From Clostridia bacterium (GTDB lineage: Bacteria; Bacillota; DAOUPZ01), in assembly GCA_030625885.1 (NCBI GenBank), contig DAOUPZ010000002.1, positions 130,545 through 194,544 on the forward strand: DNA of 64,000 bases, given 5' to 3'. The notes under the pieces are model-generated. The model was not told where the DNA came from, did not search any database, and saw nothing but the letters and a program-made list of their open reading frames with translations. The position numbers and the translations under genes are program-made. Positions 17,083-17,380 of this stretch are shown here, piece by piece (the first letter of the stretch is position 1; the number at the start of each line of letters is the position of its first letter).

Positions 17083-17380
17083 ATAGCAGGTAGCAATCAG
17101 CAGGTAGCAGGTAGGAAAAGATTAATGATAAAGATAAAGATTAAAGATAAAAAGATTGGCCGAAGGCTAATGCAAGAATGGGGACATTCCGTAAGGTACG
17201 AGCGGTGTGTCCCTATTCTCGTATTATTATAGACACAAATGTTGAATGTCTTTAGTCATTTAATTATGAATTGGGATTACGAATTATGAATTAATAAGAG
17301 GTACGCGCGGTGTGTCCCCTTAAAATCTACATCCTACCTGCTACAAGTGACCGAAGGGAGCGTCCTACCTGCTTTTTTAC
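17083..17380 (+). repeat. CAGGTAG element copy with M5, interrupted M2 and right arm
   Basis: left arm 17085-17116; M2 5' half to 17213; 84-bp insert 17214-17297 bounded by direct repeat GGTACG(A/C)GCGGTGTGTCCC; right arm about 17330-17375. Confidence 0.8.

Follow-up and report, generated by a model that had tools for sequence, protein, structure and literature searches.

A 20-nt direct repeat beside an intact M2 hairpin downstream of pheT in a Clostridia bacterium: a candidate recombination scar in a mosaic palindromic intergenic element

Elhai et al. reportedly described, in 2008, cyanobacterial arrays of tandem heptamers (STRR) and small dispersed repeats (SDR), the mobility of the latter being inferred from many precise insertions. 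The BIMEs of Enterobacteria, which are composed of REP units, are intergenic and co-oriented with the operon, combine palindromic units and linkers in a mosaic fashion, yield stable hairpins in transcripts, and exist in many combinatorial variants. The pneumococcal BOX (boxA-boxB(n)-boxC) and SPRITE repeats are modular, their orientation mirrors the coding bias, they contain tight stem-loops, and the number of modules varies; SPRITE is a terminator-like hairpin repeat (PMC3049150). Here we describe intergenic elements of a comparable architecture in a Clostridia bacterium and analyze one of them, in which a short direct repeat adjoins a hairpin module.

The analyzed stretch of DNA, referred to as the window, is 64 kb long. 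The studied element is located in the spacer 17075–17875 between pheT (14663–17074) and an ACT-domain gene (17876–18304) matching PF19571. The product of pheT is an 803-aa beta subunit of phenylalanine-tRNA ligase, as follows from precomputed Pfam domains of its homologues. Close relatives of this PheT were found only in Logan unitigs, one identical (SRR14270297) and one 90% identical (SRR14270296), the remaining matches being ~50% identical and coming from Clostridia or Bacillota. Both read sets belong to a study (PMC8547467) of sediment from the Formosa cold seep and of glycine-betaine microcosms. The window contains sporulation genes (YunB, BofC, SpoIID) as well as Firmicute-type T-box and L20 leaders, the context being that of an uncultured spore-forming lineage of Bacillota from cold-seep material. 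In a sister taxon (contig L004 from SRR14270296; pheT is 87.6% identical at the nucleotide level and PheT is 90% identical at the amino-acid level) pheT is bordered on either side by the same element ends, 37 of 40 downstream bases being identical, as far as can be followed in contigs L003 (SRR14270297) and L004, which end inside the first heptamer array. Therefore the elements are considered to be old residents rather than recent insertions, and their occupancy is conserved across species-level divergence.

Similar elements, 150–500 nt long, were found in ~17 intergenic spacers from ~900 to 44,700. They are bordered by GCAGGTA arrays on their left side and by TACCTGC arrays on their right side, and nested within them are additional paired modules as well as arrays of the AAAGATT, ACGAGGA, AATTGAC and ATGAATT heptamers. 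The elements open a few bases after stop codons and close just before ribosome-binding sites, and they also occupy spacers within the pheS-pheT and ruvC-ruvA-ruvB-queH-...-queA-tgt clusters. Nearly all asymmetric modules reside on the + strand, like nearly all genes. The GC skew is positive throughout the window, and hence orientation relative to transcription is indistinguishable from that relative to replication. Forms consisting of the left half only also exist (27560–27680). In the element downstream of pheT the outer inverted heptamer arrays pair together, and the whole element folds as one long hairpin (−100.2 kcal/mol, z = −6.5). The GCAGGTA heptamers contain GTAG, which proves nothing about REP membership. 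For a genome from Bacillota, this STRR-like architecture is unusual. The coordinates of the features are listed in Table 1.

Table 1. Features of the element downstream of pheT and examples of related elements in the window
Feature	Coordinates	Strand	Basis or remark
Host mosaic palindromic intergenic element	17083..17375	+	opens 9 nt past the pheT stop codon (17072-17074)
Left GCAGGTA heptamer array	17085..17115	+	outer inverted repeat, left arm
AAAGATT/AAAGATA heptamer array	17116..17157	+	repeat analysis
Complete M2 hairpin	17168..17226	+	23 bp; fold −31.8 kcal/mol, z = −5.9
M2 lower stem	17168-17173/17221-17226	+	fold
M2 main stem	17175-17187/17207-17219	+	fold
M2 inner stem	17189-17192/17202-17205	+	fold
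Direct-repeat copy A	17194..17213	+	3' half of the M2 loop plus 7 nt at the start of the 3' stem
Variant (L007-type) lower 3' strand of M2, TATTCTCGTATTA	17214..17226	+	12/13 paired with 17168-17180
AT-rich spacer	17227..17298	+	unique in the window except the heptamer tract
Small hairpin in the spacer	AGACA 17231-17235 / TGTCT 17247-17251	+	sequence
ATGAATT-type heptamer tract	17258-17295	+	includes M6 motif ATTATGAATTGGGATTACGAATTATGAATT, 17263-17292
Direct-repeat copy B, orphan 21-nt M2 fragment AGGTACGCGCGGTGTGTCCCC	17299..17319	+	without its own 5' arm
Right closing modules: TTAAAATCTACATCC, TACCTGC array, CAAGTGACCGAAGGGAGCGTCC core	17320..17375	+	repeat families
Example elements	952-1175, 12551-12880, 14430-14605, 17083-17375, 17575-17845, 30150-30290, 31824-32064, 33973-34240		
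Example elements, continued	36064-36310, 36885-37140, 38937-39226, 39803-39955, 41440-41690, 42756-43222, 44376-44665		

Several individual members and neighbors of the family have features of their own. The ORF 42751–43185 (Met at 42808; 125 aa) lies inside a mosaic element (arrays 42756–42786 and 43194–43222) between queA and tgt; its product is from the 23S rRNA-intervening-sequence protein family (PF05635, E = 5e-42) and has a weak bAvd-like match. This layout echoes 23S rRNA intervening sequences, whose ORFs of this kind lie between inverted repeats. In another element, an insertion absent from the sister copies contains a hairpin at 12620–12692, GGGGGACAGTTCTC ... GAGAACCGTCCCCC, with an 11-nt direct repeat, CCAGTCTCATT, directly after each arm; such a signature of inverted plus direct repeats is of the kind left by template switching. 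An array with a 69-nt period at 45060–45266 consists of GGTAGAA/GGTGGAA and AAAGATT heptamers, and its inverted partner (CCTTCACCTTCCACC...) is found ~500 nt downstream, at 45700–45800, so that the pair brackets another spacer. Long in-frame tandem repeats with 330-nt and 510-nt units (54204–55163 and 62197–63516) are present in two large SLH-domain proteins, and a repeat with a 21-nt period is located at 58271–58417. A Moco riboswitch (52077–52211, 73.5 bits) is situated directly upstream of the gene for a 966-aa protein (52293–55193) with SLH, Big_5 and SWM-repeat domains rather than of a molybdate transport or cofactor gene, which is an unusual pairing.

The module M2 is a hairpin of 59–63 nt with a loop region of 21 nt. 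A covariance model was built from four window copies and one metagenome copy, and exactly four full copies were identified with it in the window: 2125–2187, 17165–17227, 37000–37062 and 44545–44607. The copy downstream of pheT (17165–17227) matches all 63 model positions and scores 79.9 bits. Three M2 copies are embedded in one larger composite of ~130 nt and share their flanks. The metagenome copy is an M2-like hairpin reading GGGGACATTCCGTGAGGTATTAGCGGTGTGTCCCTATTATTTTGTAT on the minus strand of an unrelated contig (L007; OGCI01018957.1, positions 197–256), where it separates the divergent xylose isomerase gene (xylA) from a gene for a membrane protein. The core of this hairpin is identical to M2 at 31 of 35 positions and is followed by TATT..., with no heptamer arrays around it. 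Therefore the hairpin core exists outside the source genome.

The terminator scan produced no terminator-like sites in 16900–18000: M2 does not have the combination of a GC-rich stem, a short loop and a U-tract, and its tail TATTCTCGTATTATT is T-rich at most. The covariance model also picks a short perfect palindrome at 60306–60346 (CGCAAAAACGGGGACAGTCCCCGTTTTTGCG, E = 4e-6) and the region 55198–55272, which is a tandem pair of related hairpins. The palindromes 60306–60346 and 55230–55270 have the classical terminator form, and the terminator-like perfect palindromes in both regions lie directly 3' of stop codons. The M2 stem is common to these terminator-like palindromes, and M2 looks like a palindrome with a loop expansion of ~23 nt.

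Two copies of the composite have M2 mostly deleted. At 1085–1095 (within 1071–1100) just CGTTATTGCATG is retained, and in the copy at ~30204–30214 M2 is reduced to GCATGAAGG (about 30206–30214). Both relics keep the 3' end of the hairpin, and therefore they represent deletions and not empty sites; they show recurrent internal deletion within the element family. Other rearrangements in the family, namely deletions of linkers or cores at 14425–14662 and 39800–39962 and the tandem hairpin pair at 55198–55272, also occurred without target duplications, and no consistent flanking duplication was seen at the element borders 17083/17375, 14430/14605, 30150/30290 and 12551/12880.

Rfam 15 gave no match at 17083–17380, neither in an E-value scan of 14000–21000 nor in a gathering-threshold scan of the whole window, and blastn of the whole element 17083–17380 against plasmids and phages gave none. 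The exact pattern GGGGACATTCCGTNAGGTA matched genome contigs twice, both times in coding sequences with no further M2 homology, which was read as chance; of its five matches in metagenome contigs only that on L007 is a real M2-like hairpin. Viral contigs contained no matches to this pattern, nor to two other modules. A profile of the reverse-frame peptide across M2 (…THRSYLTECPHSCI…) was compared with 5.8 billion proteins in search of M2 copies called as spurious ORFs, and none were found; exact look-ups of small ORFs spanning the junctions (17125–17232 and 17310–17417) found nothing.

The direct repeat is 20 nt long, AGGTACG[A/C]GCGGTGTGTCCC, and its copies, AGGTACGAGCGGTGTGTCCC at 17194–17213 (copy A) and AGGTACGCGCGGTGTGTCCC at 17299–17318 (copy B), coincide at 19 of 20 positions with a start-to-start distance of 105 nt. 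The 19-mer GGTACGMGCGGTGTGTCCC with at most three mismatches has five matches in the 64-kb window, the four M2 copies and one extra copy, the chance expectation being 0.00 (100 shuffles). The repeat is non-random and sharply bounded. In the 105-nt register the identity beyond it is 28/85, the level expected for AT-rich sequence, and for this reason an ancient 105-nt tandem duplication was rejected. The original prediction had described a direct duplication in one M2 copy with the M6 motif between its copies and three other M2 copies devoid of it. All of this holds: the duplication is real, the motif was located between the copies, and the M2 copies at 2127–2185, 37002–37060 and 44547–44605 lack the duplication. 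The length of the stretch between the copies had to be adjusted from 84 bp to 85 nt (17214–17298).

M2 had also been described as interrupted, and structurally this is wrong. The nucleotides 17214–17226 complete the hairpin by pairing with 17168–17180 at 12 of 13 positions, and therefore the supposed insert opens with the lower 3' strand of M2 itself; the fold reaches −31.8 kcal/mol, compared with −31.9 kcal/mol for the canonical copy 44545–44610. With the pairs counted in the predicted fold, the probability of at least 12 out of 13 by chance is ~7e-5 if any one position has a ~0.375 chance of a Watson-Crick or G-U pair.

The origin of this lower strand probably differs from that of the rest of the hairpin. 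The copy 17167–17213 is identical to 44547–44593 at 47 of 47 positions as far as 17213, and after that the identity to the canonical copies falls abruptly to ~6/11. In the 3' strand, L007 deviates from the canonical copies at three columns of the M2 alignment (51, 52 and 59); at each of them the M2 at 17154 has the state of L007 (T, A, T) and not that of the three canonical copies. Its 5' strand is canonical, which creates a G-U pair where the canonical copies have G-C and L007 has A-U. On the strength of these three nucleotides, the M2 at 17154 is apparently a hybrid of the canonical core and 5' strand with a variant, L007-type lower 3' strand. Two further sharp breakpoints of homology, in addition to 17213/17214, are located at 17298/17299 and 17319/17320.

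These observations bear on the possibility that the 85 nt with the M6 motif are a discrete mobile element whose insertion after ...GTGTCCC gave rise to a 20-nt duplication of the target. It would explain a sharply bounded direct repeat around a segment absent from the three other M2 copies; moreover, target-primed insertion can yield a duplication as long as 20 nt, a route resembling reverse transcription being one way to a duplication of this length. However, the repeat copies do not mark the limits of a foreign unit, because the supposed insert starts with 13 nt that make up the lower 3' strand of the hairpin itself, and the hairpin before such an insertion would be without this strand. Bacterial target duplications usually comprise 2–14 nt, far less than the 20 nt observed here. 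The segment 17214–17298, which carries ...GTCCCTATTCTCGTATTATTATAGACAC...AATTAATAAG, has no terminal inverted repeats, as its ends (TATTCTCG... and ...AATTAATAAG) are alike only at the chance level for AT-rich sequence, and it has no second copy in the 64-kb window. Neither a transposase nor a reverse transcriptase was found among the 38 window ORFs scanned.

The ATGAATT heptamer tract between the repeat copies recurs in the window at 18324–18345 (− strand), 18531–18551 (+ strand) and 32899–32913 (− strand). The spacer 18305–18590 between two paralogous ACT-domain genes has AATTCAT arrays on the left and arrays of ATGAATT, the M6 heptamer, on the right; these tracts form an inverted pair with no bounding direct duplications. 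The original prediction proposed to look for duplications around other M6 tracts, and none of those in the window is bounded in this way. Given all these points, we regard the insertion of a mobile element with target-site duplication as improbable. The possible role of the spacer as a palindromic partner of the left AAAGATT array was considered as well and proved not significant (108/500 shuffles).

Copy B retains 20 of 21 positions of the canonical M2, including the canonical CCCC, and 19 of 21 positions of copy A. Taken alone, it folds at −8.1 kcal/mol (z = −1.1, not significant). It occupies the place of the usual right-hand linker, GTTATTGCATGG...GCAGGAAATGTCAAA (36 nt), which this element lacks. 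Homology to other elements resumes exactly at 17320, where TTAAAATCTAC... is identical to the canonical TTAAGACCTACC... at 24 of 28 positions. Copy B is thus an island of 21 nt in which homology to M2 begins and ends abruptly.

Such an island might be a relic of a tandem M2-M2 pair, in which the 5' arm, half of the loop, the lower 3' strand and the linker of the second M2 were lost or overwritten by AT-rich heptamers. Precedents for the components of this scenario exist in the window: related hairpins stand in tandem at 55198–55272, modules of the ACGAGG type do so at 11553/11598 and 32983/33021, and the relics at 1085–1095 and ~30206 retain only the 3' part of M2. The scenario leaves unexplained, however, why the lower 3' strand of copy A is a different allele though the core is identical, and a degenerate 5' half of M2 before copy B was not significant, 111 of 1000 shuffles scoring as well. 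We consider it rather unlikely, and a close variant of the account given below.

Our preferred explanation, held with moderate confidence, is that two M2-type hairpins underwent ectopic, templated recombination or repair, and that the 20-nt duplication is the scar which this left in a resident mosaic element. The order of events that we infer is as follows. Initially, the resident element would have carried an M2 of the canonical type. An exchange anchored in the 47-nt M2 core identical between copies, this junction being hidden, would have imported the lower 3' strand and ~72 nt of the AT-rich downstream flank with the ATGAATT tract from another locus with a variant M2-type hairpin; the 64-kb window contains no locus carrying the 85-nt sequence that could be the donor. 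The other end would have been joined illegitimately, back within the loop of the resident M2 at AAG|AGGTAC, which would double 20–21 nt of the resident M2, that is, the 3' half of the loop and GTCCCC. The loss of the 36-nt linker may have been a separate, prior deletion or a concomitant one, of the kind common in the family. The outcome would be an intact hybrid hairpin with copy A, the spacer, and an inert orphan copy B abutting the right closing modules.

The original prediction offered a choice between a target-site duplication and a recombination joint. The joint agrees with the sharp homology breakpoints, the hybrid hairpin and the M2 deletion relics elsewhere, and the target-site duplication is not supported. 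Likewise, of the suggestion that the modules are mobile or recombining, recombination is supported by the hybrid hairpin and the breakpoints, and a mobile insert is not, as the segment between the repeat copies lacks terminal inverted repeats and occurs only once in the window. Recombination requires at least two breakpoints plus the loss of the 36-nt linker, so that a single insertion would be the more parsimonious account; the arrangement of copy A, spacer and copy B is a single instance from one genome. We view the scar as an ordinary rearrangement within the element family, having no function of its own, and its direct repeats make a 105-bp deletion likely.

Repeated modules could also have misled the assembly. 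The 47-nt M2 core and ~40 nt of the right closing module are exact repeats, short-read unitigs from the same sample break at these repeats, and a chimeric path could have been mis-threaded through them. However, the region 17208–17333 is unique, and all k-mers of at least 31 nt spanning 17213/17214 contain the whole of copy A. From this uniqueness we infer that the adjacency of copy A, spacer and copy B must exist in the reads, and only the assignment to the locus downstream of pheT could be wrong. An assembly artefact is accordingly very improbable in our estimate.

Copy B could in principle serve as a second 3' partner for the GGGGACA arm, making an RNA switch with a regulatory role downstream of pheT, since 17180–17192 could pair with it in the same 12 upper base pairs. 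The hairpin with copy A dominates the ensemble with 23 pairs versus 12, copy B is absent from other M2 copies, and no Rfam family matches the locus, so we give hardly any credence to this alternative pairing.

A bolder proposal would be that M2-type hairpins are still actively copied between loci through a hairpin-anchored copy-and-anneal mechanism or through target priming mediated by RNA, either of which would leave duplications of ~20 nt, the scar being caught mid-event in an undescribed heptamer and hairpin spacer system of Bacillota parallel to the cyanobacterial STRR/SDR. Such a system might be linked to the genes for 23S-rRNA-IVS/bAvd-like four-helix bundles inside some elements. We mention this as a speculation with little chance of being correct.

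The duplication itself is minor: it is one rearrangement scar, probably unstable. As a marker, it indicates that the family evolves by recombination, templated patching and deletion among hairpin modules at fixed intergenic positions and not by transposition. More notable than the scar is the element family, which fills nearly all spacers along 45 kb of co-directional housekeeping genes and raises questions about intercistronic RNA processing and stability and about the origin of heptamer arrays outside cyanobacteria.

Among the described systems, the closest mechanistic parallel to the scar is provided by homology-facilitated illegitimate recombination and templated-insertion scars. As in these, one junction is hidden in the homology of the M2 core and the other is sharp and non-homologous, and a short resident duplication flanks the imported DNA; in this organism such a process would be putative, the presence of a DprA gene (61–918) being circumstantial. 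MITEs with target-site duplications (Correia elements, Nezha) resemble the 85-nt segment in being short, AT-rich, intergenic and flanked by direct repeats. In contrast to them, the segment has no terminal inverted repeats, extra copies or matching IS, its flanking repeat is 20 nt long, and it starts with sequence of the host hairpin.

The host element shares with STRR/SDR the tandem intergenic heptamer arrays and the small hairpin modules nested in repeats and present or absent in different copies, but the phylum and the sequences are different, and here there is just one duplication, which is imprecise and involves two or more breakpoints. The likeness to BOX and SPRITE is architectural only, since the sequences and the grammar of modules differ; with SPRITE it extends to the M2 stem, common to the terminator-like palindromes at 60306–60346 and 55198–55272. 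BOX elements are thought to be mobilized as MITEs, whereas the elements described here are conserved in position in the sister taxon and show no consistent target duplications at the borders inspected. All the properties of BIMEs listed at the beginning recur in the studied elements, although the sequences are unrelated, inverted heptamer arrays frame the units in elements of 150–500 nt, and the host is a member of Bacillota with no RAYT (TnpA-REP) gene among the window ORFs scanned. Overall, the host element is best filed among interspersed mosaic palindromic repeats.
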